Positions 755 through 42,831 of a stretch of DNA of 64,000 bases are shown in pieces. The notes under the pieces are model-generated. The model did no database searches, was not told the DNA's origin, and saw only the letters and a program-made list of their open reading frames with translations. Position numbers and translations under genes: made by a program. Origin of the DNA: an uncultured Verrucomicrobiae bacterium (GTDB lineage: Bacteria; Verrucomicrobiota; Verrucomicrobiia; Chthoniobacterales; JAFAMB01); contig CAWIPH010000001.1 in assembly GCA_963837955.1 (NCBI GenBank), positions 128,001-192,000 of the forward strand, read 5' to 3'. Position 1 is the stretch's first letter. Each line of letters begins with the position of its first letter.

Positions 755-1534
755 GTGAAACTTCTCTTAACCGCCGATCTTCATTTTCATATTCCGTGGT
801 TCGAGTGGCTGCGGGAAGTCGCCACACAGTATGATCTCGTGGCCATCGGCGGCGACCTTCTGGATCTCGAAAATCGACAAGGAATGGCCCGCCAATTGAT
901 CTATCTTTATGAATGGACGCAGCACTTCGTAAAACGTCCCGCTTGCTTGGCGATCTGCACCGGGAATCATGATTTCCCCTCCGGCACTCCGTTAGTCTTT
1001 CCCGGAGTCCCGCTACCCAGTAATAAGCTGGCGATACTTCGTCAATTTGCTTCTGCTCAGCCCTGGCCCCAAGCGCTGAAACTAAATCATCACATTGCCG
1101 TCGACGGCGATGAAAAATTATTCCGGTTTCGCTCTGGCGAGAATTTGGCGGTTACTTGTTGTCCGTATCGTGCTGATGGGTATGTGGAACAGCTGCGCCC
1201 GCACGCTTCGCCATGGCTACTCTTGCACCACGAGCCGCCCGCTAACAGCTTGATCGCCAGTCCGAAGACCGGTAATCTGGCGTTTGCTCAGAGCATTTAC
1301 CGAAGCAAACCGACGTGGTCATTGAGCGGTCACGTACATTTCACCGTCGGCGACGAAAATTGTTTCTTTGAGCGGATCGGATCGACCGTCTGCTTCAATT
1401 GCCGCCAAAACCCGCCGGGTGGTCTGCTTCCGCCCCAACCTAATGTAATCACAATAGATACGAGGCGCCGAGCAGCGACCTGGAGACGGTGGATTACGCA
1501 GGGTGCAGACGAAGAAGTAACCGTCGACCTTTAA
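755..1534 (+). CDS. Calcineurin-like metallophosphoesterase
   Basis: Motifs TADLH, GGDLLD, GNHD, HHEPP and SGHVH. Start placed at GTG 755 (VKLLLTADLH). Confidence 0.85.
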   Translation: MKLLLTADLHFHIPWFEWLREVATQYDLVAIGGDLLDLENRQGMARQLIYLYEWTQHFVKRPACLAICTGNHDFPSGTPLVFPGVPLPSNKLAILRQFASAQPWPQALKLNHHIAVDGDEKLFRFRSGENLAVTCCPYRADGYVEQLRPHASPWLLLHHEPPANSLIASPKTGNLAFAQSIYRSKPTWSLSGHVHFTVGDENCFFERIGSTVCFNCRQNPPGGLLPPQPNVITIDTRRRAATWRRWITQGADEEVTVDL

Positions 1535-1592
1535 TCCGCGAATTCCGGGAGAACCGTGAAAATCGAAGAGAGGCAACCTGCGAACGCTAATT

Positions 1593-2297
1593 ATTCTCCG
1601 CAGATTTTCGCGGATTTTAATCAGGTCCTACCAAGCGCACTCTAAAGAGAAGAGGAGCAATCCGCAGATTTTCACGGACTATTTTATTAATCCGCAGATT
1701 TCACAGATTACGCAGATTATTTTGTTTCAGCTCCTTGTGCCGAGTCATGTGACCAAATAAAGCGCCGATGTTCTAAACTCGTTGCTCCAAAATTGATCAA
1801 GAGTCCTCTTTCATGGGTACTCGCTTTTAGATAGTTGAGGACCTGAGCCCATTCGATCTCTCCCAGTTTGGTCAACGCCTTCAACTCCACGATGATTGAC
1901 TCGTAGCAAACAAAATCTGCTCGATACGGGGCCCTCAGTTTTCTGCCCTTGTAAAAATCGGCGTTTCGACTTGAGGCAGGAATGGAATACGACGATCGCT
2001 GAGTTCTAGTTCGAGAGCCTCTTGATAGACAGGTTCGAGAAAACCGCACCCGAGTTCTTTGTGAACCTCAAGCGCCGCTCCAATGATTTGATAAGTTTGG
2101 TTATCCATGGGATAGAAATAAATAACATAAATGTAAAGCGTTGTCTAGATACGCTTACCGTGATACCTCAACCATGGGAAACTAAACTTCCCTTGCCTAC
2201 AGCGAACGTCTGCTGAGCGCCTGTACCGTCTTGGATTTAAGAAATCTGCGTAATCTGTGAAATCTGCGGATTAATAAGTAGTCGGCGAAATCCGCGG
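1593..2297. mobile_element. GxxExxY cassette bounded by inverted 9-mer tandem arrays
   Basis: Perfect 35-bp inverted repeat at 1684-1718 / 2243-2277, built from (ccgcagatt)(tcacagatt)(acgcagatt). A homologous, internally deleted copy lies at 46174-46511. Mobility is inferred. Confidence 0.6.
1717..2108 (-). pseudogene. GxxExxY protein (PD-(D/E)XK-like), single-base frameshift
   Basis: ATG 2108 gives [36 protein letters not shown]...PIF. After a frame change in a T5 run at ~1953-1957 it continues YKGRKL...RADFVCYESIIVELKA...AQVLNYLKAS...GLLINFG. Length is 392 nt (3n+2). Confidence 0.9.
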
Positions 2298-2298
2298 A

Positions 2299-3417
2299 CT
2301 ATTGCTTTCCCGTCGGCAGCCCCGCATACCCGGTTAGCTCCATATAGCCCACTCCTTGGACGGATTTCCCGGCTCGGGTGCCGTTCAGCCGGATTGCCCC
2401 TTCCCAATAGGTCACTGCCAGGTTCAGCTCTTGGTCAGGCACTGGTGTCGTGACAACGACATCGATCTGAAACTTAGGAACCCGCAACCGCCATCCAATC
2501 GGGTATCGCGCCTGGTTATGGTCGCTAGTCCAATATTCTGTTGGGTCCAGCACGAAATCATCCACTCCCAATTCGATTGCCGCGCCTGCGGGAGTCACCA
2601 ATTTCCCATTCGAATACCGATCGATCGCGCCATTCTTCAGCCGCATCTGGTAAAGCATGAGATCGGTTCCGTCGGAAAGCTGAAGCGAAAACCAATTCCA
2701 ACCAACTTGGTCTGCTGCCAGCTGGTTGGTCGCCCATTCACGATCGAACCAGGATTGGCCAGTCACTTCGTATGCTACTCCGCCAACCCGAAGCGTACCC
2801 TGGGTCCGCAAACGGGTGATTGAATAGTAATAGGAAGCGCGCCCGTCGCCGCCGGCCTTTTGGCTGAAACCATCTTTACCTTCCAGTACAGGTTGTTTGT
2901 CCGGCTCGAGATTGAGTTGAATGGATTGTTGCCCGTCCTCGGCCTCCGCATGAAAAGCGGAATCAAGATCGAGCTCCCAGTTAGAAATCCAGACCAATTT
3001 GGAGCCGGACAAAAATCCGGCATCATTGAAAGCTCCCCGACTGATCCGCTCTGAGGCGTAAAACTTCTTTGGGCCGATATCGGTAATCGTAAAATGCGCA
3101 AACTTCAGGTCATTCATGACGAAGCGGGATTTGACCGGCAGACGTTTGTTCGGCGAGCGGTAGCCGTGCCGAAAGAATGTGAGTTCGTATCCGAACTCGC
3201 GGCCTTCTTGAGACCTCAAGTTCCCCGTGAGATACCACCATTCGGTCTGGTAATCGATATGCGGTCCATGATCCCGGGGAAATTCCAGATGGTAACCTGG
3301 TTGGGCCAGCCGCCAACCATCCGCGTTAAACTCAGCTGCCCGGAGTGGAGCTGGCAGCGACAGGACAGAATAAACTGCGAGGTGTATCAAAAAATTCCGT
3401 GCTATCGATGGGATCAT
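2299..3417 (-). CDS. Secreted AttH/CrtC-like (carotenoid 1,2-hydratase / lipocalin-like) protein
   Basis: Signal peptide; FPRDHGPH, EWWYLTGNL, SYYYS, WFDREW, YWEGA and GYMELTGY motifs. Confidence 0.85.
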   Translation of the reverse strand: MIPSIARNFLIHLAVYSVLSLPAPLRAAEFNADGWRLAQPGYHLEFPRDHGPHIDYQTEWWYLTGNLRSQEGREFGYELTFFRHGYRSPNKRLPVKSRFVMNDLKFAHFTITDIGPKKFYASERISRGAFNDAGFLSGSKLVWISNWELDLDSAFHAEAEDGQQSIQLNLEPDKQPVLEGKDGFSQKAGGDGRASYYYSITRLRTQGTLRVGGVAYEVTGQSWFDREWATNQLAADQVGWNWFSLQLSDGTDLMLYQMRLKNGAIDRYSNGKLVTPAGAAIELGVDDFVLDPTEYWTSDHNQARYPIGWRLRVPKFQIDVVVTTPVPDQELNLAVTYWEGAIRLNGTRAGKSVQGVGYMELTGYAGLPTGKQ

Positions 3418-22618: not shown

Positions 22619-25288
22619 ATGATTGCTCTCCGCTATGAACGTGGGGTCCACTTACCCTCTCTCGACCTCTGGCTGGATCCTTGGGATGAGCGGCCCACGG
22701 CCTTTGTCTCCCACGCTCACACGGATCATATCGGCAATCACCGGGAAGTAATCCTTTCCGCGGTTACCGCCAAGTTAATGACTGCCCGGTTACCGGGAGA
22801 ACGCGTCGAGCATCAACTCGATTTCAAAGTTCCTTTCTTATTCCGCAATGCGGAACTGACCTTGTATCCGGCAGGCCATATCTACGGGTCTGCTCAGGCG
22901 CACATAGCGATCGGAAATGAAACTCTGCTCTATACGGGTGACTTTAAGCTGCGGAAAGGCAAGTCGGCCGAACCAATTGAATGGCGTCAGTCTGACACCC
23001 TCATTATGGAAACGACCTACGGCCTACCGCGTTACGTCTTCCCGTCAACCGATCTGGTAGTCGGGCAGCTAGTGAAATTCTGCGCCGAGACTATCGAGGA
23101 CAACGCTACCCCGATACTATTTGGTTACTCGTTGGGGAAAGCCCAAGAGATCCTGGCTGCTCTTTATGGGTCAGGATTCCGCATTCTGCTTCACCCGAGC
23201 GTCTTTCAGATGACCAAGTTATACGAAGCGCTTCAGGACAAACTCCCCCCATATTCATTGTTCCGTCCCGACGATTTGTCCGGGAGTGTTTTCATCTGTC
23301 CGCCCAGCGCTAATCGAACAAAATTGGTTCAGAGCATAAAGTCCCGACGAACAGCCATGCTAACTGGTTGGGCTCTAAATCCCGGAGCCAACCATCGATT
23401 CCAATGTGATGCCGCATTTCCTCTTTCGGACCACGCGGACTATTCTGATCTTTTGAAATATGTCGACTTGGTTCAACCACGTCGGGTGCTTACTTTACAC
23501 GGATACGCGCGCGAATTTGCGGAGGATCTCCGCCGCCGCGGAGTGGAAGCCTGGGCGCTAGGTGAGGACAATCAGTTGGAACTTTCCATGACGCTGGCGG
23601 TTCCGGAAATGCCGGCTCCGGCTGTCTTCATCGCAGCGCAGGGCGAGAATTGTGCGTTTGCCAGATTCGTTGCGGTCTGCGAAGCGATCAGCCAAGTCAC
23701 CGGCAAGCTGCGAAAGATCGAACTTTTAGCTCAATATTTGCGCACTCTCGATCCGGAAGACTTAAGGACGGCAAGCATTTATCTGACCGGCCATCCATTC
23801 TCTCGAGCCGATGATCGAGTACTGCAAATTGGCTGGGCGGTCATACGGAAATCTCTCATGCAGGCTGCCGCCATTTCTGAGCCTGAGTTTCGCCGAATTT
23901 CAGCCGGATATGGAGACGCCGCCAAAATTGCTTACGAAGTCTTGCTCGGGAAAACGACACCGCGCCCCTTCTCGATTGGCGAAGTAAGATCCCAATTCGA
24001 GAAGATCGAGCAGGCCTCCGGACCGACCGGTAAGACAGCTCTTCTCACAGCCTGGCTAAAGGAGCTAGATGCGGCCCGAGCAAGTTACGTGATTAAAATA
24101 TTGGGCGGGGACCTGAGAATCGGACTGAAAGAAGGTTTAGTGGAAGAGAGTATTGCAGCCGCCTTTGCCGCTGAGCTGGACCAGGTACGCGAAGCTCACA
24201 TGCTGACTGGAGACCTCGGCGAAACAGCTGTTCTCGCTTTGCGGAAGTCGCTGGATTCAGCTTCGGTAAATCTGTTTCGACCGATCAAATCGATGCTGGC
24301 GATTGCGGAACCAGCTGCAGACGCGGTTGCAAAACGGCTCGGCAGCGATTTCGGCCGGGCGCATGCGTTCGCAGAACAGAAATTGGATGGAATCCGAGCT
24401 CAATTGCACGTGGGTGAGAACCGGATTCGCGTTTATAGCCGAGATCTGCGAGACATTTCCGAAGAATTTCCAGAGCTAACTCACCTAAGATTCTCGCAAC
24501 GCATTATCCTGGACGGCGAGATTTTGGCGTTCAGGAAAGAAAGGAAGCTTACTTTCTTTGATCTGCAGAGACGACTGGGCCGAAAACGACATCTCGATCT
24601 ATTTGAGACCGACGATGTGCCGATAGTGTATGTCGCTTTCGATCTGCTCTGGCTCGATGGCAAGAGCCTACTGAAAGAGCCGCTTCATTATCGACGCTCA
24701 TTACTCGAGTCGTTGGAATTGCCAGATATTGTACGCCGGTCCAACATCCGCATGATTTCTACTTCAGAGGAAGTTGAGGCCGCCTTTGTTGCATCCAGGC
24801 GAGCCGGCAACGAGGGACTGATGATAAAAGACCCCGATAGTTTATATCAGCCGGGTCGACGCGGAGGAAGTTGGATCAAGCTGAAGAAGGAATTGGCAAC
24901 TCTCGACGTCGTGGTAGTTGCGGCCGAACAAGGTCACGGTAAACGTAGCCATCTGCTAAGCGATTATACTTTCGCCGTCCGGAACGAGACCAGGAACGCT
25001 CTCGAGATTATTGGGAAAGCGTACTCTGGACTAACCGATTCCGAAATTGAGGAATTAACTGAACATTTTCGCCGGACAACGATCCGGCAGCGAGGCCGGC
25101 TCAATGAAGTAATTCCCGAAATCGTTCTCGAAGTCGCCTTTGCTTCGGTCCAGCCGAGCAGCCGCCATTCCAGCGGTCTTGCGCTCCGCTTCCCGCGAAT
25201 TAAAGCAATTCGCCGCGACAAGACGGTCGGTGAGATCGACACCGTCGAATCCGCCAAGCGACTAGTTGCTACGAGCGAAGCTTTCTAA
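22619..25288 (+). CDS. ATP-dependent DNA ligase fused to an N-terminal MBL/beta-CASP nuclease domain
   Basis: SHAHTDH, AGHIYGS, YTGDFK, ETTYG and LSDHAD (beta-CASP), followed by EQKLDG (motif I), ILDGE, AFDLL, EGLMIK, WIKLK and ALRFPR (ligase). Confidence 0.9.
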   Translation: MIALRYERGVHLPSLDLWLDPWDERPTAFVSHAHTDHIGNHREVILSAVTAKLMTARLPGERVEHQLDFKVPFLFRNAELTLYPAGHIYGSAQAHIAIGNETLLYTGDFKLRKGKSAEPIEWRQSDTLIMETTYGLPRYVFPSTDLVVGQLVKFCAETIEDNATPILFGYSLGKAQEILAALYGSGFRILLHPSVFQMTKLYEALQDKLPPYSLFRPDDLSGSVFICPPSANRTKLVQSIKSRRTAMLTGWALNPGANHRFQCDAAFPLSDHADYSDLLKYVDLVQPRRVLTLHGYAREFAEDLRRRGVEAWALGEDNQLELSMTLAVPEMPAPAVFIAAQGENCAFARFVAVCEAISQVTGKLRKIELLAQYLRTLDPEDLRTASIYLTGHPFSRADDRVLQIGWAVIRKSLMQAAAISEPEFRRISAGYGDAAKIAYEVLLGKTTPRPFSIGEVRSQFEKIEQASGPTGKTALLTAWLKELDAARASYVIKILGGDLRIGLKEGLVEESIAAAFAAELDQVREAHMLTGDLGETAVLALRKSLDSASVNLFRPIKSMLAIAEPAADAVAKRLGSDFGRAHAFAEQKLDGIRAQLHVGENRIRVYSRDLRDISEEFPELTHLRFSQRIILDGEILAFRKERKLTFFDLQRRLGRKRHLDLFETDDVPIVYVAFDLLWLDGKSLLKEPLHYRRSLLESLELPDIVRRSNIRMISTSEEVEAAFVASRRAGNEGLMIKDPDSLYQPGRRGGSWIKLKKELATLDVVVVAAEQGHGKRSHLLSDYTFAVRNETRNALEIIGKAYSGLTDSEIEELTEHFRRTTIRQRGRLNEVIPEIVLEVAFASVQPSSRHSSGLALRFPRIKAIRRDKTVGEIDTVESAKRLVATSEAF

Positions 25289-31493: not shown

Positions 31494-31635
31494 CCTACTA
31501 TAAAGAATCTTTTTCGGCCGTGATTCTAGCTAAAGAAATCGATGGGGAGGGCTCATCGCCCTTCTCCACTCGCGCGGTTTGGGAACGCTTTATTTTTCTG
31601 GCGTCGCCCTCGACCTCCGGTCCAGATTGGCTTGC

Positions 31636-32676
31636 ATGGCGCCCGATTTTGTCTTTCGGCCGGTTGGCGAACACGATCTCGGCGGTCTCAGGCATCTGGC
31701 TGACGTAATCCAAGACGGATTGACCACGCTGCCGCCCGAGGACGCCGCGCTCGAAGATCGTATTAACCAATCCCTTCGCGCCTTTGATCATCGGATAAAA
31801 AAGGCCGGAGGCGACCATTACCTTTTTGCTCTCGAAGAAATCGGTTCCGGTGCGGTAGTCGGCACTTCCGGAATCATCGCGCGCGTCGGCGGTTTCGATC
31901 CGTTTTATACCTACGAGGTTCGCCGAGAGCGGCTCGTGCATCTGCCGCTCGGGATCGATAGTGAAATGGACGTACTTCACCTCAAGCTCGACCACAAAGG
32001 CCCGTCTGAGGTTTGTACGCTGTCACTGCGACCAGAGTTCCGCCGCGCTGGACTTGGGCTTCTGTTGTCGTTGAGCCGTTTCCTTTTCATGGCTTGCTTT
32101 CCGCAGAGATTTGACGAGCACGTGATTGCAGAACTGCGAGGGTTTACCAATGAACATGGACTTTCTCCGTTTTGGGAGGCGATCGGTCGGCATTTCTTTG
32201 CCCAAACGTTTGCCCATGCGGATTTTCTGAGCGGCATCGGTCAAAAGGATTTTATCCGCGATTTGATGCCCAAATATCCGATATACACCGCCACACTTCC
32301 CGAAGAGGCCCGGGCGGTGATTGGACGAGTTCACCGCGACGCCGAGCCCGCTCTCAAGATCCTGCTGGCCCAAGGATTTGAGCGATCCAATGAGGTCGAC
32401 ATTTTCGATGCGGGCCCGCTGGTGAGAGCTTCTCGATCGTCAATTAAAGCCGTCGGTGAGTCACGATTTGGTGAGATCGCTGCGTTGCGGGAACCGCATG
32501 ATAGCACGCCCTACTTGGTCGCTCACGCAGCGCTCAATTTCCGAGCTTGTCTTGCGCCGTTAGAAATTATTGAAGACCGGACCATTATTATCTCCGAGCG
32601 AACGGCGGCGGTTCTTCAGGTGGGAATTGGTAATCGACTGGTTTTCCTCGCCCTACCGACTCGACCCATCCGATGA
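31636..32676 (+). CDS. astA: Arginine N-succinyltransferase
   Basis: LTTLP, YLFALE, SEVCTL, LLSLSRFLF, VIAELRG, SPFWEAIGRHFF, DIFDAGP. Start set at ATG 31636. Confidence 0.93.
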   Translation: MAPDFVFRPVGEHDLGGLRHLADVIQDGLTTLPPEDAALEDRINQSLRAFDHRIKKAGGDHYLFALEEIGSGAVVGTSGIIARVGGFDPFYTYEVRRERLVHLPLGIDSEMDVLHLKLDHKGPSEVCTLSLRPEFRRAGLGLLLSLSRFLFMACFPQRFDEHVIAELRGFTNEHGLSPFWEAIGRHFFAQTFAHADFLSGIGQKDFIRDLMPKYPIYTATLPEEARAVIGRVHRDAEPALKILLAQGFERSNEVDIFDAGPLVRASRSSIKAVGESRFGEIAALREPHDSTPYLVAHAALNFRACLAPLEIIEDRTIIISERTAAVLQVGIGNRLVFLALPTRPIR

Positions 32677-34043
32677 ACGCTGCTGCTGCTCCGTCGATTG
32701 AGTTTCGAGAATATAATTTCGATGGATTGGTAGGGCCAACTCACCATTATGGAGGACTTTCTCGAGGGAATCCCGCATCAATGCAAAATCGGGCATTGGT
32801 TTCCCACCCGCGCCTGGCTGTCCGTCAAGGCCTGGCCAAAATGCGTTGCCTCTTTGAACTAGGCGTCGGCCAGGCGCTTATCCCGCCCCTGCATCGCCCG
32901 CGGCTCGATTTGCTTCGTCGAGTTGGATTTACGGGTAACGATCAGCAGATAATCGAGAAGGCGTGGCGACAAGCGCCGGATCTGCTTTCTGCCAGCTTCT
33001 CCGCCTCTGGGATGTGGACGGCAAATGCCGCTACTGTGGCTCCCAGTTGTGACACCGCCGACAGCAAGTTGCACTTCACCCCGGCTAACTTGATTGCAAA
33101 TCTTCACCGCTCCTTTGAGGCCGAAGATACTGCTGCTCTTTTGCAGGTTCTCTTTCCAGACCCTGAGCTCTTTTTTCATCATGCACCGCTCCCACGAACG
33201 CTCGCCCTCGGTGATGAAGGTGCCGCGAACCACAACCGGCTGGTCGCTGCGACCGGGAAGCCTGGTATCCATTTGTTTGTTTATGGCCGCGAACATTTCC
33301 GGCAAACTAAACCGACTCGTTTTCCGCAGAGGCAGACACTGGAAGCAGCCCAGGCAATCGCCCGATTGCATCGGCTCGATGCGGACCGCACCTTTTTTGC
33401 GCAGCAGAACCCGGAATCGATCGAGGCCGGAGTCTTTCATAACGATGTGATAGCGACAGCCCACAACGAACTCTTGTTGTATCACGAAAAAGCTTTTGTC
33501 GAACCGCAGGAGTTAATTCAGCAACTATCCACAGCCTTCGCCAAGACCCAAGGCAGAGACTTATTCGCTATTGAAATAAATCAATTCTCGCTGAGTGAAG
33601 CAGTGGCATCCTACTTTTTTAATTCGCAGGTGGTCACGGCTTGGGACGGGAAGATGGCTCTGATCGCGCCGGAGGAATCGCGACAAATAGTGCCAGTCTA
33701 CGAAACGATCCAACAGCTGCAATCCGATCCCAACTGCCCCATTTCCCGAGTGCTGTTCTTGGATCTCCGTGAAAGCATGAAAAACGGGGGCGGTCCGGCC
33801 TGCTTGCGAAATCGGATAGTTCTGAACTCAAAGGAGCGTGCCGCCGTTCCGCAGCGAGTCTTTCTGGACGAACACTTGTTTTCCGAACTGGAGCAATGGG
33901 CAGATCGACGTTACCGAGAAAGTCTGATTTTGAATGACTTCCTCGATCCGTCGCTTCGCGAGGAAGTAGAGCTTGCGCTCGATGAATTGACCCAAGTCCT
34001 GGGACTTGGATCCATCTATCCTTTTCAAAAAGGAGGGGCATGA
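32673..34043 (+). CDS. astB: N-succinylarginine dihydrolase
   Basis: EYNFDGLVGPTHHYGGLS, MWTANAATV, GDEGAANH, GVFHNDV, ESMKNGGGPACLR. Confidence 0.95.
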   Translation: MNAAAAPSIEFREYNFDGLVGPTHHYGGLSRGNPASMQNRALVSHPRLAVRQGLAKMRCLFELGVGQALIPPLHRPRLDLLRRVGFTGNDQQIIEKAWRQAPDLLSASFSASGMWTANAATVAPSCDTADSKLHFTPANLIANLHRSFEAEDTAALLQVLFPDPELFFHHAPLPRTLALGDEGAANHNRLVAATGKPGIHLFVYGREHFRQTKPTRFPQRQTLEAAQAIARLHRLDADRTFFAQQNPESIEAGVFHNDVIATAHNELLLYHEKAFVEPQELIQQLSTAFAKTQGRDLFAIEINQFSLSEAVASYFFNSQVVTAWDGKMALIAPEESRQIVPVYETIQQLQSDPNCPISRVLFLDLRESMKNGGGPACLRNRIVLNSKERAAVPQRVFLDEHLFSELEQWADRRYRESLILNDFLDPSLREEVELALDELTQVLGLGSIYPFQKGGA

Positions 34044-35209
34044 ATCCACACGTTTGGATACAGGGAGAGCAGCATCGGCTTCTCGAGCGCGTGATCCGCT
34101 GGGCCGAAATTAACTCCGGGAGCGGTAATCTGGACGGCCTAGGTCGCCTAGCCGAAATGGTATTGAGTGATTTTCAAGAGCTTGAGCCAGACGATTCGGC
34201 GTTACTTCTCGTTCCGGACACCGTCATCGGTCCGCGCCCTTTAATCCGACTACAAAAGCGCTCAAATGCGACTAAAAAGGCTCTGTTTTTTGGGCATTTG
34301 GACACGGTCTACGGTCCCGAACACCCTCTCCAAAACACGCGGTTCCTGGCCGACGGAAAACTCAACGGACCCGGGGTCTGCGACATGAAAGGTGGTTTGG
34401 CAATCTTGCTTTGCGGTTTGACGGCGTTCGAACGCTCGAATCACGAAAAACGATTTGGATGGACCATCCTGATAAATTCGGATGAAGAGGTTGGATCATC
34501 CTTGTCGTCGCCGTTCTTTGAAGCGGTCGCGCCAAGTCATGAGGTGGGACTTGGGTTTGAACCGGCTTTGCGAGATGGGTCGATCGCTTCCAGCCGAAAA
34601 GGATCAGGGAATTTTACGTTGCAGTTCCACGGCAAAGCGGCCCATAGCGGAAGAAACCCCCGCGACGGAGTTAACGCACTAGTGCCGCTAGCCCATTTCA
34701 TCCTGGAGTGCCACGCGATGAATAGTCGCCGCGATTCCATTTTTATTAACCCGGCAATCGTTACCGGGGGCACCGCAGCCAATGTCGTTCCCGATTTCGC
34801 TTCTTGCCAAGTGAATGTGCGAACCGCCACGCCCGCCGATGAGGCGTGGATCCTGGAAGAGTTTCATCGTTTCGTTGCCGAGATTTCCGAGAAAAATGGA
34901 TACCGCGCCGAGCTCTCCGGCACCTTTACCGCGCCACCGAAGAAGCTTAGTCCTCAGACCGAAACCTTGATCGAGTTAGTACAAAAAGCCGGCCACAAGA
35001 TCGGCCTTGATATTCAGGCCAAGCCGACCGGCGGGACTTGCGATGGCAATCGACTCGCGGGCTTTGGCCTACCCAATCTCGATAACCTGGGAGCGAGGGG
35101 TGACTATATCCACAGCAAAGACGAATTTATCCATCTGGAAAGCCTTGTGGAACGCGCTCGGTTGCTCTACGAAGTTTTGTTGGAGCTGAACGAAAGGCTA
35201 ATTCAGTGA
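34040..35209 (+). CDS. M20-family metallohydrolase (candidate desuccinylase)
   Basis: GHLDTV, GPGVCDMKGG, DEEVGS, GKAAHSG, HSKDE; ATGA-coupled to astB. Confidence 0.88.
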   Translation: MNPHVWIQGEQHRLLERVIRWAEINSGSGNLDGLGRLAEMVLSDFQELEPDDSALLLVPDTVIGPRPLIRLQKRSNATKKALFFGHLDTVYGPEHPLQNTRFLADGKLNGPGVCDMKGGLAILLCGLTAFERSNHEKRFGWTILINSDEEVGSSLSSPFFEAVAPSHEVGLGFEPALRDGSIASSRKGSGNFTLQFHGKAAHSGRNPRDGVNALVPLAHFILECHAMNSRRDSIFINPAIVTGGTAANVVPDFASCQVNVRTATPADEAWILEEFHRFVAEISEKNGYRAELSGTFTAPPKKLSPQTETLIELVQKAGHKIGLDIQAKPTGGTCDGNRLAGFGLPNLDNLGARGDYIHSKDEFIHLESLVERARLLYEVLLELNERLIQ

Positions 35210-38316: not shown

Positions 38317-38339
38317 ACCGAGCGAAAACTACACCCGCG

Positions 38340-38563
38340 GAAGCAATGGTCAACACATCACATAATTCTCCATAGGATTTAAGGGGAATATTCAAATGGT
38401 TGCAACAGATGGTTGTTTATGCCCAAGAAACTAAGATTTTAAATCAAATTTCTATATACGTTTTCTAATTATTCGTTAATATCGTCTTTAGCTTAATATT
38501 CTATTAAGCTGTTCTAAATCGTCTGGCCTTGTTTATTGACGATTTCGACTCAAATTTACGACT
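38340..38563. promoter_or_regulatory. AT-rich divergent promoter region between sseA and the lysine-catabolic operon
   Basis: Marked drop in GC between two divergent starts; individual boxes not resolved. Confidence 0.5.
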
Positions 38564-39958
38564 ATGACCGAAGTGCACCCTCACCAATCATCGGCCTTTG
38601 ACTGGCCGCTTGCCTTTCCCGCAGAGGAGCTTTTGCGCAAACGGATCGCCTCTTTCCTGGAACGCCATTCTTGGGCTCAACGATTCTCGGATCGGCTTCA
38701 TGAAGACACGGGGACGGATCTGTTTGAATGGATTGATCATTTGACCGTAAACGAAGAGGAAGTTTTCGCGCTACGGGAAGTTGGGTTTGTCTCGGAGGGA
38801 GTGAAGACTCCGGCTGGAGTTGAAGTTTTGTATCATCCGCAAGCAATGCTTCCGCGGGTAGTTGTGATGCAGGAAGGCAGTCGCGACGGTGCGCCAGCGC
38901 GCCTTGCTATCCGCCCGGAATCGTTGGTTGACTTTGTTGCTGCCCACGATCTGCGTGCCGAAATTCGCGACCGATTTGGGAGCCGCCTACGCCGGGCAAC
39001 CATCTCAACCGAAAACGGGTTCGAGCTTCTCGCCGTTGAACGACTTGGTTGGAGACATTTTGTGGCGAGCGAACCTGTACCCGGATTTGCTACTTCGATT
39101 CTCGCGGTCCAAGAACTTTGGCGAACTCGGAAGCGGAATTTTCCGGACGACTCTGAGGGAGTCAAACTCGCTTTTGAGTTGCAAGCAAAAGCCATGGAGC
39201 TCGTCGGACCAGATGTCGCCTGCGAACTTTTCTTCGCAGAGGAGCGCCGCTACTGGGAGAGACGGAATCGCGCGGGCCAGATTCAAAAGCGCCGCCAAGA
39301 TCTTCTTGGTCTTGGCTGGGGAAACCATGATCACCACACGTTCCGCTGTTCCCGACGATTTTTTGCCGATCTTATCCGGTTCCTTGTGAATTTCGGATTC
39401 ACTAAACGTGAACGCTACTACGCCGGCGCCGAAGCTGGATGGGGCGCGCAAATCCTGGAACATTACGCGACCGGTATCACGGTTTTTGCTGACGTCGATC
39501 TCATGGCGGAAGAGACCGAAATTGATTTTTCTCAGCAGCCGCTGCCGGAGGCGCCTCGTCTACGCACCGTCGGACTGTGGTGCGGACTACACGGTGACAG
39601 TTTTCTCCAAGCGGGCATGCATCACTTGGAGGCACGATTCGAGTTCGGAGCATTGCGCGACCAATTGGCCGGTGAGGGTGTCTCGACGATGAAGCCCTTC
39701 TCTGATTTTGAGTTTCTCAAGCAGGCATTTACCGAAGGCGAGCGCTGGTCAGTCGATCCAAGTCGGGTTCAGCACCTTCTTGATCGTGGACTGATTACCG
39801 GCGAACAGGCAGAAATTTTTCGCCAAACCGGCGCAATCGGCAGCCACCTGGAGAATCTACAACGCAAAGGCGGCTTCAAAGGGTTCAATCAAAAATCGGT
39901 GAGCGTGATTATCGAAGCGACCGACCCAAGGGCATTGACCGCGGTCAACCATTCATAG
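38564..39958 (+). CDS. Hypothetical protein, probable divergent DUF1338/HglS-like Fe(II) dioxygenase
   Basis: NHDHHTFR ... MHHLEARF ... LKQAFT ... GSHLENLQR ... FKGFNQKSVSVIIEATD follows the DUF1338 motif order; operon context agrees. Confidence 0.6.
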   Translation: MTEVHPHQSSAFDWPLAFPAEELLRKRIASFLERHSWAQRFSDRLHEDTGTDLFEWIDHLTVNEEEVFALREVGFVSEGVKTPAGVEVLYHPQAMLPRVVVMQEGSRDGAPARLAIRPESLVDFVAAHDLRAEIRDRFGSRLRRATISTENGFELLAVERLGWRHFVASEPVPGFATSILAVQELWRTRKRNFPDDSEGVKLAFELQAKAMELVGPDVACELFFAEERRYWERRNRAGQIQKRRQDLLGLGWGNHDHHTFRCSRRFFADLIRFLVNFGFTKRERYYAGAEAGWGAQILEHYATGITVFADVDLMAEETEIDFSQQPLPEAPRLRTVGLWCGLHGDSFLQAGMHHLEARFEFGALRDQLAGEGVSTMKPFSDFEFLKQAFTEGERWSVDPSRVQHLLDRGLITGEQAEIFRQTGAIGSHLENLQRKGGFKGFNQKSVSVIIEATDPRALTAVNHS

Positions 39959-39972
39959 GGAGGAGATCGGTC

Positions 39973-41079
39973 ATGTACATCGGGATCATCGGAGCCGGAA
40001 AAATCGGTGAGTCCATCGCGACCTTGCTGGAAACCTGCGGGTTTTGCGAACGGGTAAGACTCGGCGACACCCGTCCGCTCGATGACATTTCTGATCTGGA
40101 AAAGGCAGAGTTTAGACAGCTCGACGTTACTCAGCCGGCTGAGCTCGACTCATTCGTCGCTGACTGCGAGGCGGTGGTCAGTGCTGCGCCCTACTACCTG
40201 AACAAAACGATCGCGGAGGTTTGTTCCAGACATGAAACATCGTATTTCGACCTGACTGAAGACGTTGAGACCACCAACTACGTTCGTGGCTTGAGCAAGA
40301 ATAGTCGGGCCACTTTCATGCCGCAGTGTGGTCTGGCCCCTGGCGCGATCAATATCATCGCGAGTGGGCTAGCTGACACATTTAAGACGATTCGCTCCGT
40401 GGAAATGAGGGTCGGTGCGCTTCCGTTGTCGGCCAGTAATCAGATGAAATACTACCTAAGCTGGAGCACGGCTGGGTTGATCAATGAGTATTGTCATTTC
40501 GGCGAGGCGCTGACTCAAGGAAGACGAATTCCGACGGTTCCACTCGACGGGGTGGAACGGCTGACGATCGATGGTGTCGAGTACGAAGCTTTCAATACGT
40601 CCGGGGGCGCAGCGACGATGTGCGAGACTTTCGAGGGTAGCGTGACGGAGCTGAACTACAAAACTCTCCGTTATCCGGGACATCGCGATTTGATGAAGTT
40701 TCTTCTGTTCGATCTCAATCTGAGCCAAAAACAGGAGGTTTTGACACAGATATTCGACCAAGAGGTTCCGCTCACGTTTAACGACGTCGTGGTGGTGTAC
40801 GTGAATTCGGTCGGATCGGACAGTGGCAACCTGGTCCAGCGCAGTTTTGTTAGAAAGATTTATTCTGGCACGATTAGCGGACATCCGCTCTCAGCCATCC
40901 AGTTGTCCACAGCTGCGGGCATGGTCGGCGCGCTCGAGCTATTTGCCAAAAAACAATTGCCGGCAGGTTTTGTCCGCCAGGAATCAATTAGTTTGACTCA
41001 ATTTTTCGAAACCCAATGGGGTGGTCGCGTGTACGGACAAGCGGAAACTGTAGTCCCTAAATTCACAGTAAAAACGTAG
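39973..41079 (+). CDS. Lysine 6-dehydrogenase / saccharopine dehydrogenase family protein
   Basis: GAGKIG Rossmann motif, YFDLTEDV, CGLAPG, RVGALP, WSTAGLINEY, EAFNTSGG, YKTLRYPGH; strong RBS (GGGAGGAG). Confidence 0.88.
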   Translation: MYIGIIGAGKIGESIATLLETCGFCERVRLGDTRPLDDISDLEKAEFRQLDVTQPAELDSFVADCEAVVSAAPYYLNKTIAEVCSRHETSYFDLTEDVETTNYVRGLSKNSRATFMPQCGLAPGAINIIASGLADTFKTIRSVEMRVGALPLSASNQMKYYLSWSTAGLINEYCHFGEALTQGRRIPTVPLDGVERLTIDGVEYEAFNTSGGAATMCETFEGSVTELNYKTLRYPGHRDLMKFLLFDLNLSQKQEVLTQIFDQEVPLTFNDVVVVYVNSVGSDSGNLVQRSFVRKIYSGTISGHPLSAIQLSTAAGMVGALELFAKKQLPAGFVRQESISLTQFFETQWGGRVYGQAETVVPKFTVKT

Positions 41080-41286
41080 CCGGCCCAGCGATCAATGAGG
41101 TCTTTATGTGCTGGGAGTTCAGAGGGGCAGCATACTCGATCGTCCCTTATAGGGACGGACCGATCTTTTTATCGTTAACCCAGCAATGAATTGCCGGGCT
41201 ACTATCATGATGTCCCTAGCGGGACCGCGAACCCATACCAGAATATAATAGGCTAGAAGCCAATACCGGCGAACTCCTAACCCCAT

Positions 41287-42831
41287 ATGAACCCTACTGA
41301 CGTCCAAGCCGTGCGCGCCGAGCTTTTTGCGCGTTTGCAACTGAGGGAAGAGGAAAGCGGAGCCTTCAGTGGAAAATGGTCAGGAACCGGTCCGCTATTG
41401 AAAAAAAAATCGCCGATTGATGGCTCCCTCCTTGGATCGGTCCGGCAAGCAACAGCTGAAGAATATGATCGGACGGCAAGAGACGCGCAGCGTGCTTTCG
41501 AGAAGTGGCGTCTTGTTCCTGCGCCTCGCCGCGGCGAACTGGTCCGCCGGCTCGGCGCCAGGCTTCGCGAGTTGAAGCCGTTTCTCGGGCGTCTGGTCTC
41601 TTTGGAAGCCGGTAAGATCCTGGCAGAGGGTGAAGGAGAAGTGCAGGAAATGGTCGATATCTGCGACTTCGCCAACGGCCTCTCACGACAACTCTACGGC
41701 TTGACGATCGCTTCAGAACGCCCGGGACATCGCATGTTCGAACAGTGGCAACCATTGGGGATCGTTGGGATTATCTCCGCATTTAACTTTCCGGTTGCGG
41801 TGTGGTCCTGGAACGCCGCGCTGGCAACGATCTGCGGAAACTCCGTCATTTGGAAACCGTCGGAGAAAACACCTTTTACGGCTATCGCGTGCACCAAGAT
41901 CGCTGCGGCGGTCTGCGAAGAGGCTGGAGAAGATCCGGCGCTTTTTTCTTTGGTGATCGGGGGGCGAGAGACCGGCGCTTTACTCGCGAACGATCGACGG
42001 GTTGCGCTTGTATCGGCCACCGGCTCGGTACGAATGGGAAAAGAGGTAGCGCAGACGGTCGCCCGACGTCTCGGGAAATCGCTGCTTGAACTAGGCGGCA
42101 ATAACGCTGTGATCGTGACCCAGTCCGCGAACCTCGAAATGGCGAAGCGGGCCCTTCTCTTCGGCGCGGTGGGCACGGCCGGCCAACGTTGCACCAGCAC
42201 GCGCAGGCTCATCGTACACCGTGCTGTTCGCTATCCACTTCTGCAAGCTCTCGAAAAGGCCTACCGAAGCGTAAAGATTGGGAATCCGCTCGACCCGTCT
42301 ATTTTAATGGGTCCGCTCATTGACGAGGCGGCGGTTCAGTCGATGGATGAGGCGTTGGAACAAATCCGGGCTTCAGGTGGTTCGATTCGGGTCGGCGGTG
42401 AACATCTGTCCGGCCCAGAATACCCTGGGGGCCAGTATGTCAGTCCCTGCATTGTGGAGGCCCAAAACGATTGGCCGATAGTGCAAAATGAAACATTCGC
42501 GCCGATCCTCTATGTCCTGACTTACGATCGGTTGGAGGAAGCTATCGCCATGCAAAATGGCGTTCCCCAAGGCCTCAGCTCCGCAATCTTTTCCAATGAC
42601 GTCCGGGAAACAGAAACCTTCCTCTCTGCGGTGGGGAGCGATTGTGGGCTGGCTAACGTCAACCTCGGCACCAGCGGCGCGGAAATCGGCGGCGCTTTCG
42701 GAGGAGAAAAGGAAACTGGTGGTGGCCGAGAGAGTGGCAGCGATGCTTGGCGCAACTACATGCGCCGGCAGACTAGTGTGATCAACTATTCTTCGGAATT
42801 GCCTCTCGCGCAGGGGATCCGGTTTGAATGA
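41287..42831 (+). CDS. ALDH7-family aldehyde dehydrogenase (aminoadipate-semialdehyde / P6C dehydrogenase)
   Basis: GEVQEMVDICDFANGLSRQL, ISAFNFP, LELGGNN, GTAGQRCT, GAEIGGAFGGEKETGGGRESGSD. Confidence 0.9.
   Translation: MNPTDVQAVRAELFARLQLREEESGAFSGKWSGTGPLLKKKSPIDGSLLGSVRQATAEEYDRTARDAQRAFEKWRLVPAPRRGELVRRLGARLRELKPFLGRLVSLEAGKILAEGEGEVQEMVDICDFANGLSRQLYGLTIASERPGHRMFEQWQPLGIVGIISAFNFPVAVWSWNAALATICGNSVIWKPSEKTPFTAIACTKIAAAVCEEAGEDPALFSLVIGGRETGALLANDRRVALVSATGSVRMGKEVAQTVARRLGKSLLELGGNNAVIVTQSANLEMAKRALLFGAVGTAGQRCTSTRRLIVHRAVRYPLLQALEKAYRSVKIGNPLDPSILMGPLIDEAAVQSMDEALEQIRASGGSIRVGGEHLSGPEYPGGQYVSPCIVEAQNDWPIVQNETFAPILYVLTYDRLEEAIAMQNGVPQGLSSAIFSNDVRETETFLSAVGSDCGLANVNLGTSGAEIGGAFGGEKETGGGRESGSDAWRNYMRRQTSVINYSSELPLAQGIRFE

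Follow-up and report, generated by a model that had tools for sequence, protein, structure and literature searches.

Within a 64-kb stretch of DNA from an uncultured Verrucomicrobiae bacterium (assembly GCA_963837955.1, contig CAWIPH010000001.1, positions 128,001 to 192,000; the whole stretch is called the window here), we identify a gene whose 464-amino-acid (aa) product is probably an isofunctional 2-oxoadipate dioxygenase/decarboxylase, a very divergent relative of HglS composed of two modules. The gene, referred to here as the HglS-like gene, is followed by genes for a lysine 6-dehydrogenase-like (LysDH-like) enzyme and an L-piperideine-6-carboxylate (P6C; 2-aminoadipate semialdehyde) dehydrogenase. 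A remote HglS had been proposed for this open reading frame (ORF) from the sequence alone (the original prediction), and this proposal is supported by the fold, by the conserved residues and by the lysine-operon context. The ORF is real, and the ORF listing and translation hold every motif quoted for it.

Structural similarity to HglS

An AlphaFold (AF2) model of the 464-aa protein, based on an alignment of 77 family sequences (A1) from which the conservation counts given below were also taken, had a pLDDT of 94.6 and a pTM of 0.93. The model has a VOC/DUF1338-like fold, for which a partly closed beta-barrel flanked by helices is characteristic and which the original prediction had named as a check. 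In a search of 48,161 PDB representatives with VIA-align, an aligner independent of Foldseek, the first three ranks were taken by HglS-family (HglS/DUF1338) structures, namely, the rice hydroxyglutarate synthase FLO7 with 2-oxoadipate (6W1K; Z 16.9), 3IUZ (16.4) and 3LHO (15.6). The alignment to FLO7 included 224 residues between positions 84 and 460 of the model, and the alignment to 3LHO matched positions 205-445 to the whole chain with an rmsd of 2.9. Scores were lower for 4-hydroxymandelate synthase (HMS; 12.8) and YdcJ (11.6), as they were in a repeat search for Pseudomonas putida HglS (6W1G/6W1H; 12.2/12.1) and for HMS and 4-hydroxyphenylpyruvate dioxygenase (HMS/HPPD; 12.4-13.4). By VIA-align, the catalytic half thus resembles the short-form DUF1338 enzymes most, with a lead of about 3 Z units over the mechanistically related HMS/HPPD.

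Predicted active site

According to the excerpts of PMC7286885 on which we rely, the metal of HglS is held by His70, His226 and Glu294, and Arg74 (Arg64 in FLO7) binds the distal carboxylate of 2-oxoadipate. Arg74 confers specificity for 2-oxoadipate, and an R74A variant is inactive (PMC7286885, same excerpts). The C-terminal module (C-module) of the 464-aa protein contains a conserved His-His-Glu triad co-linear with His70/His226/Glu294. We propose, from sequence comparison, that the C-module keeps a 2-His-1-carboxylate site formed by H257, H354 and E430, together with R261 as the putative substrate-binding arginine. In alignment A1, conservation was 73/77 for both D256 and H257, 70/77 for R261 and H354, 72/77 for E430 and 75/77 for R434, and the predicted ligand and substrate residues persist in members that are about 30-35% identical. 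The ligand candidates are located on model strands 255-261, 354-358 and 424-434, presumably the usual ligand-bearing strands of VOC folds.

For comparison at the sequence level we used an HGLS profile from 24 PF07063 proteins (alignment A2), of which the consensus motifs are LDHGATRT, FNHIA, LRQTST, YVEFIQR and GFLxxNAEKIYxST. Two 3LHO-like short forms have LDHLALRG, ANHFAF, LEQSST, YTEFALR and GFIEASANHIFEST instead. The confident core of the hhalign alignment of A1 with A2 pairs LKQAFT with LRQTST and FKGF...IIEATD with FxGF...IYxST. Under relaxed settings, D256-H257...R261 fell on the invariant D48-H49...R53 of HGLS and H354 on the invariant His197 of the motif FNHIA. E430 and R434 reproduce the E-x3-R motif of HGLS (HLENLQR compared to YVEFIQR/YTEFALR), and E430 is assigned by motif, by conservation and by a non-significant alignment in which both residues are paired with this motif. 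The motifs that the original prediction had given for HglS were thus recovered in the 24 PF07063 proteins, in an unchanged order, and the His/His/Glu and Arg residues it had singled out are the conserved ones.

Beyond the HglS motif set, the arginines R189, R191, R228 and R264 are invariant in the family. Three members of A1 (P0152, P0206 and P0214) have Asp in place of R261 and Asn in place of H353, with H257, H354 and E430 kept. This combination hints at a different substrate in these members, to be compared with a plant DUF1338 clade that has Gln/Met at the position of Arg74.

A degenerate N-terminal module

The N-terminal module (N-module, residues 1-205) was folded alone from an alignment of 45 sequences taken from related loci, which gave a pLDDT of 89.9. 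With VIA-align it matched 3LHO best (Z 12.7; 146 residues aligned, rmsd 2.5), followed by 3IUZ (12.5) and FLO7 (11.7), and generic VOC domains scored about 6-7. Foldseek likewise placed 3LHO at the top (E 2.3e-5). Because the N-module best matches DUF1338 structures, we consider the protein to consist of two HglS-like modules in tandem, the first degenerate and the second catalytic. The suggestion in the original prediction of an N-terminal VOC/glyoxalase-like repeat is borne out as far as a VOC-type repeat is concerned, and can be refined to a second, degenerate DUF1338-like module as opposed to a generic glyoxalase.

An hhalign comparison of the N-module with the C-module was weak (probability 8.5%, E 0.004). 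It paired D58-H59 with D256-H257, R160 with R434, and GWRHF with GFKGF; in addition, GSRLRRAT of the N-module falls on GGxLRQTST of canonical HGLS. The N-module retains D58 (73/77), H59 (55/77), E159 and R160, lacks an equivalent of the second His and has Leu at the place of the Glu ligand; the complete set of ligands is found in the C-module alone. We therefore interpret the 464-aa protein as the product of an internal tandem duplication followed by degeneration of the N-module, comparable to HPPD/HMS, in which the N-terminal barrel is non-catalytic. By the same analogy, the N-module is probably structural.

With one of its two modules clearly degenerate and its activity a prediction, the protein could be a non-catalytic or regulatory one that merely retains the VOC fold. 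We consider this very improbable, given that 70-75 of 77 diverse sequences, down to about 30% identity, keep the residues of the C-module proposed to bind metal and substrate, and that the gene sits within catabolic operons.

Gene context

The operon structure given in the original prediction, with the HglS-like gene first in a lysine dehydrogenase-ALDH7 operon, is confirmed by a 14-nucleotide (nt) gap to the second gene, by the similarity of the second gene to saccharopine dehydrogenases and by the equivalog match of the third gene to NF050084 (Table 1). The LysDH-like gene starts 14 nt past the stop codon of the HglS-like gene and is preceded by GGAGGAG, and the short gap makes translational coupling of the two genes likely. 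Its product had no match in NCBIfam. The closest PDB relative is PH1688 (3ABI; E 4.7e-16), which we take to be a characterised archaeal L-lysine dehydrogenase.

We then compared 80 genome loci encoding homologues with 52-85% identity, using tblastn with the neighbours of the HglS-like gene in the window and an L-lysine 6-transaminase (LAT) as queries (E<=1e-20, at least 45% identity and at least 50% coverage). In 57 of the 80 loci, the HglS-like gene is paired with genes for the LysDH-like enzyme, LAT and/or P6C dehydrogenase. Both the LysDH-like and the P6C dehydrogenase genes are present in 39/80 loci, 37 of which have the exact order of the window; the exceptions are L011, where the dehydrogenase gene lies upstream in the opposite orientation, and L013, with a 2.1-kb insert. 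A different arrangement, in which a class-III aminotransferase gene is followed by the P6C dehydrogenase gene and then by the HglS-like gene, was found in 12/80 loci, and this aminotransferase is an L-lysine 6-transaminase (TIGR03251, 574.6 bits; cut-off 520.8). Partial sets account for 6/80 loci (three with P6C dehydrogenase only, three with the LysDH-like gene only). Overall, P6C dehydrogenase is linked to the HglS-like gene in 54/80 loci and the LysDH-like gene in 42/80.

L-Lysine 6-transaminase and lysine 6-dehydrogenase are alternative enzymes with a common product. One partner set is thus combined with either of two initial steps of the pathway, so that the context evidence is stronger than synteny among closely related genomes. 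The argument from the lysine operon, put forward originally for the window, therefore generalises to 57/80 loci and to all eight carrier genomes described below, and it is reinforced by the presence of canonical HglS in the same operon position.

Some loci had other neighbours. In six loci without lysine genes (L046, L050, L060, L062, L069 and L070), genes for a pair of ABC-2 membrane proteins (PF06182) are located immediately upstream on the same strand. An SCP-x/DUF35-type thiolase (PF22691; NF004936 at 344.8 bits, below the cut-off of 375) is encoded directly downstream in L074 (2423-3658) and L080 (7468-8706), and ORF clustering places such a thiolase in three loci. L102, the locus of a distant member (39% identical), contains a convergent class I/II aminotransferase gene (1306-2586, minus strand), followed by a regulator gene (2752-3402, plus strand) with an HTH_10 domain, which we assume to be typical of archaea. 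This aminotransferase might be the 2-aminoadipate transaminase that the operon lacks, but it was found at a single locus.

Canonical HglS in the same operon position

In a phylum sample of 301 genomes of at least 90% completeness, two sister genomes (G231 and G288) encode a canonical HGLS (PF07063, 375.6 and 369.9 bits), followed by a LysDH-like enzyme and P6C dehydrogenase in the same order and on the same strand as in the window. The canonical HGLS of G231 scored 395.8 against NF049974, below the cut-off of 550. The LysDH-like protein encoded there is 39% identical to that of the window (E 7e-81), and the P6C dehydrogenases are 55-59% identical (tblastn; NF050084 at 731.6 bits, cut-off 730). 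The operon of the window is the G231/G288 operon with its first gene exchanged.

Among the 301 genomes, 14 encode P6C dehydrogenase above the cut-off, 8 the HglS-like family and 7 a PF07063 protein. The 14 genomes with P6C dehydrogenase divide into 8 that carry the HglS-like family, 4 that carry canonical HGLS and 2 that carry neither (G048 and G285); in no genome do both occur. The HglS-like family is absent from all 287 genomes that lack P6C dehydrogenase, three of which carry short PF07063 forms. Both solutions occur inside single genera (g11, G012 versus G282; g32, G234 and G237 versus G144). As the genomes are related and mostly belong to one family (f10), these phyletic counts are descriptive and not statistical. 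The genome from which the window was taken (95.25% complete) had no PF07063 match at E<=1 in a six-frame search that included the HglS-like gene itself, and no PF07063 match was found in five further carriers (0/5).

A large family without a name

Among 7,999 scored candidates, 7,019 clusters at 90% identity were homologous with E<=0.001, all annotated as "hypothetical" and with no precomputed Pfam domain; at 50% identity there were 803 representatives. Full-length members have about 430-480 aa, indicating that the two halves travel together. Only unnamed clusters were found in the ESM Atlas, and the clusters of 10 distant representatives had no names either. The protein lacks recognisable Glyoxalase/HPPD sequence domains, with no Pfam match at E<=10 and HPPD at no better than E ~0.9 in a PDB profile search. 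In a full-text literature search, the listings contained no description of a Pfam-less HglS-like family, and only papers on HglS surfaced. The family is not named in current databases.

Comparison with known enzymes

Structures of the short-form DUF1338/HglS proteins (PF07063; FLO7 6W1K, 3IUZ and 3LHO) are the best matches to the C-module and the N-module alike. They share with the 464-aa protein the motif order D-H-x3-R, x-H-h-x, L-[KR]-Q-x-[ST]-T, E-x3-R and F-x-G-F-x9-E-[AS]-T, and a link to lysine catabolism is common to both (PMC7286885, in the excerpts cited). By contrast, identity is 13-17% with no HMM match, and short-form proteins consist of one module of about 250-320 aa, whereas the 464-aa protein has two in tandem plus linker helices of about 50 residues.

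With the long-form proteins HglS/YdcJ (6W1G/6W1H; YdcJ 2RJB; NF049974), the 464-aa protein shares its proposed reaction and the logic of His/His/Glu and Arg (PMC7286885, excerpts). Long-form members hold the operon position of the HglS-like gene in G231 and G288 and are similar in length, with about 450 aa. The structural match to the 464-aa protein is weaker (Z 11.6-12.2). The extra length of HglS/YdcJ appears to reflect insertions in a single module and an extension at its C terminus, and not a duplicated N-module, as judged from the alignment of positions 212-445 with positions 5-403 of the chain.

HMS/HPPD and, by prediction, the 464-aa protein are both built from two domains, of which the C-terminal one is catalytic and the N-terminal one, a VOC domain, is not. 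The reaction class of HMS/HPPD is that of HglS, an intramolecular decarboxylation and hydroxylation of a 2-oxoacid (PMC7286885, excerpts). HMS/HPPD score below the DUF1338 structures for each module of the 464-aa protein, and they act in aromatic amino-acid catabolism, whereas the context of the HglS-like gene is lysine.

Proposed reaction and pathway

By analogy to HglS and FLO7, H257, H354 and E430 of the C-module would hold Fe(II), and R261 would hold the distal carboxylate of 2-oxoadipate. Fe(II) would bind 2-oxoadipate through the C1 carboxylate and C2 keto oxygens. O2-driven oxidative decarboxylation would then be followed by intramolecular hydroxylation, to give D-2-hydroxyglutarate and CO2. 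In the pathway that we infer, with enzyme identities assigned by homology, the LysDH-like enzyme would convert L-lysine to 2-aminoadipate semialdehyde/P6C, from which P6C dehydrogenase would form L-2-aminoadipate. An aminotransferase encoded outside the operon would yield 2-oxoadipate, the substrate from which the HglS-like enzyme would generate D-2-hydroxyglutarate, and D-2-hydroxyglutarate would finally be oxidised to 2-oxoglutarate, possibly by a YdiJ-like protein of 976 aa encoded on contig 2. The best NCBIfam match of this protein is D-2-hydroxyglutarate dehydrogenase YdiJ (NF049975), at 631.8 bits and far below the cut-off of 1350, and on this sequence match we consider it a candidate for the next step and nothing more. 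Within the ORFs examined, canonical-HGLS operons likewise contained no 2-aminoadipate aminotransferase.

With three genes for catalytic subunits of heme-copper oxidases in the genome, an O2-dependent enzyme is plausible in this host. A different picture emerges from the distant members. P0184 (35% identical, with all key residues kept) has homologues with the source names Thermoplasmata, Korarchaeota, Micrarchaeota, Bathyarchaeia, Thorarchaeota, Brocadiaceae and Patescibacteria. Bathyarchaeia, Thorarchaeota, Korarchaeota and Brocadiaceae are mostly anaerobic. Such lineages, in which we also tend to count Micrarchaeota and Thermoplasmata, would suit an O2-independent VOC enzyme of the isomerase, epimerase or lyase type that acts on an intermediate of the lysine pathway, and the model has matches at Z ~8-9 to two members of the VOC superfamily, methylmalonyl-CoA epimerase and glyoxalase I. 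We regard an enzyme of this kind as improbable, however, because the best structural matches are all O2-dependent, decarboxylating oxygenases of 2-oxoacids, the predicted ligand set is 2-His-1-Glu as in HglS, the host is equipped for aerobic respiration and the gene takes the operon position of canonical HGLS. In a broader proposal, the family could be an ancient tandem-duplicated lineage of HglS type that spans Bacteria and Archaea, with members from anaerobic lineages (Bathyarchaeia, Asgard, Korarchaeota and anammox bacteria) that use no O2 or another oxidant to act on 2-oxoadipate or a related 2-oxo-dicarboxylate. We put this forward tentatively and think it unlikely.

Weighing the assignment

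Several observations weigh against the assignment of the 464-aa protein as a 2-oxoadipate dioxygenase/decarboxylase. The link to HglS is made through fold, motif co-linearity and context and not through significant sequence similarity. There was no match in Pfam even at E<=10 and none in NCBIfam at E<=0.01, including the HglS models NF049974 and NF050083, and the cut-offs of the curated hidden Markov models (HMMs) for HglS/DUF1338 (PF07063, NF049974 and NF050083) are not reached. Sequence searches of PDB chains with phmmer and the family profile retrieved no HglS, and only a COG1565 protein (E 0.0078) and HPPD (E ~0.9). The hhalign alignment of A1 with A2 was weak, both at full length (probability 18%, E 1.3e-3) and for the C-module alone (42%, E 2.6e-4), and a global alignment to HGLS had a probability of 0.1%. 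The main HGLS profile mis-registered the Glu strand onto E417 (conserved in 27/77), and the pairing of E430 with the Glu of HGLS comes from a non-significant hhalign alignment to two 3LHO-like sequences (E 0.2) and from conservation. At the structural level, the margin of the short DUF1338 structures over HMS is just about 3 Z units, and Foldseek with the whole model returned HPPD/HMS first (E 5e-10, TM ~0.29), with no DUF1338 protein among the matches displayed. Regarding context, 23/80 loci have no lysine gene in their flanks, six of them with less than 1 kb of flank on one side, and four short metagenome loci around one distant member also have none. No 2-aminoadipate aminotransferase gene was found in the operon or within about 15 kb, and the score of the YdiJ-like protein belongs on this side as well. 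The kinship of the compared genomes means that the phyletic counts overstate independence. Finally, distant members in mostly anaerobic lineages fit poorly with an obligate O2 reaction.

Several of these points would also suit an enzyme with the Fe(II)/O2 chemistry of HglS, HMS and HPPD that acts on another 2-oxo acid, for example, a different 2-oxo-dicarboxylate or one derived from lysine, and thus has a paralogous function instead of replacing HglS. No HglS model detects so divergent a sequence, HMS/HPPD score little lower, more than a quarter of the loci lack nearby lysine genes, the three members with the R261 and H353 replacements suggest substrate variation inside the family, and no role is assigned to the four additional invariant arginines. 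Nevertheless, we judge another substrate to be quite unlikely: canonical HGLS holds the identical operon slot in G231 and G288, the HglS-like family and HGLS are mutually exclusive among genomes with P6C dehydrogenase, and R261 is conserved at the place of the arginine that sets 2-oxoadipate specificity in HglS. We thus maintain that the 464-aa protein is probably a 2-oxoadipate dioxygenase/decarboxylase. Since the curated HMMs do not recognise it, but fold, ligands, arginine and context agree with HglS, we file it as a tandem-module HglS/DUF1338 variant outside PF07063 as currently defined.

Features of the window

Coordinates are positions in the whole window, and all genes are on the plus strand unless stated otherwise (Table 1). 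The leader upstream of the HglS-like gene had no match in Rfam, so that a lysine riboswitch or other known RNA at this position was rejected, and no sigma-70-like site was reported there. The rhodanese-proximal end of the leader (38317-38400) is partly conserved in L001, L005, L006 and L008, with the blocks CGAAACTACAC...CAAC...CCGTAGG.TTT, and the rest of the spacer cannot be aligned. These blocks possibly represent a site for a regulator or belong to the promoter of the rhodanese gene.

Table 1. Positions of the HglS-like gene, its modules and motifs, and the adjoining features of the window
Feature	Position	Strand	Basis or remark
HglS-like two-module VOC protein gene (P0001)	38564..39958	+	ORF of 464 aa, ATG start; translation, homologues, model
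Degenerate DUF1338-like N-terminal module	38564..39178	+	Residues 1-205; folded alone, structure matches
Linker helices and C-terminal catalytic HglS-like module (predicted)	39179..39955	+	Residues 206-464; 3LHO and FLO7 alignments; hhalign
Codons H257...R261 (DHHTFR)	39332..39346	+	Putative first Fe(II) ligand and distal-carboxylate Arg; roles from excerpts of PMC7286885
Codon H354 (MHHLE)	39623..39625	+	Putative second Fe(II) ligand; first residue of model strand 354-358
Codons E430...R434 (ENLQR)	39851..39865	+	Putative carboxylate Fe(II) ligand and conserved Arg
Motif WIDHLTV	residues 56-62		Translation
Motif NHDHHTFR	residues 254-261		Translation
Motif MHHLE	residues 352-356		Translation
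Motif LKQAFT	residues 385-390		Translation
Motif GSHLENLQR	residues 426-434		Translation
Motif FKGFNQKSVSVIIEATD	residues 438-454		Translation
Intergenic leader/promoter region	38317..38563	+	247 nt, AT-rich, divergent rhodanese gene on far side; sequence reading
LysDH-like gene, saccharopine dehydrogenase family	39973..41079	+	PF03435 and PF16653, ~1e-13
P6C dehydrogenase gene	41287..42831	+	NF050084 equivalog, 793 bits (cut-off 730)

The 207 nt that separate the LysDH-like gene from the P6C dehydrogenase gene include a stretch (41179-41211, plus strand) that matches the Acido-Lenti-1 sRNA motif of Rfam below the threshold (25.3 bits compared to a gathering score of 37, E 0.0066). The match is probably due to chance, because none of five related loci scanned whole contained such a match (0/5).

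Two other regions of the window were noted. Positions 31579-35209 (plus strand) contain a partial arginine succinyltransferase cluster with AstA (PF04958, 370 bits) and AstB (PF04996, 603 bits), in which an M20 peptidase gene follows AstB with a 4-nt overlap where the desuccinylase is expected. The lysine operon is thus preceded, at a distance of 3 kb, by another operon for amino-acid catabolism. At 22619-25288 (plus strand), an ATP-dependent DNA ligase of 889 aa is encoded (PF04675, PF01068 and PF04679), and an N-terminal RMMBL metallo-hydrolase motif, detected only below the cut-off, suggests a nuclease-ligase fusion.

Significance

Lysine catabolism in bacteria and plants had one last gap, which was filled by HglS as late as 2019-2020. 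Genomes without a PF07063 protein thus appear unable to process 2-oxoadipate by the HglS route. If our assignment is true, an unnamed family supplies the 2-oxoadipate step in Verrucomicrobiota and probably in many other bacteria and archaea, and its recognition would correct pathway reconstructions, for example, the filling of gaps in lysine degradation in metagenome-assembled genomes from soil and freshwater. An internally duplicated architecture would be added to the HglS/HMS/HPPD group, useful for understanding the origin of non-catalytic VOC barrels and for the design of pathways that lead from lysine to hydroxyglutarate or glutarate. In the broader proposal made above, which we think unlikely, the two-module build may also represent an evolutionary bridge between single-barrel DUF1338 proteins and the two-barrel enzymes HPPD and HMS. 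The occurrence of the family in apparent anaerobes is a puzzle for O2 chemistry of the HglS type, and an O2-free activity of members from anaerobic lineages, if true, would constitute a new chemistry in the VOC superfamily.

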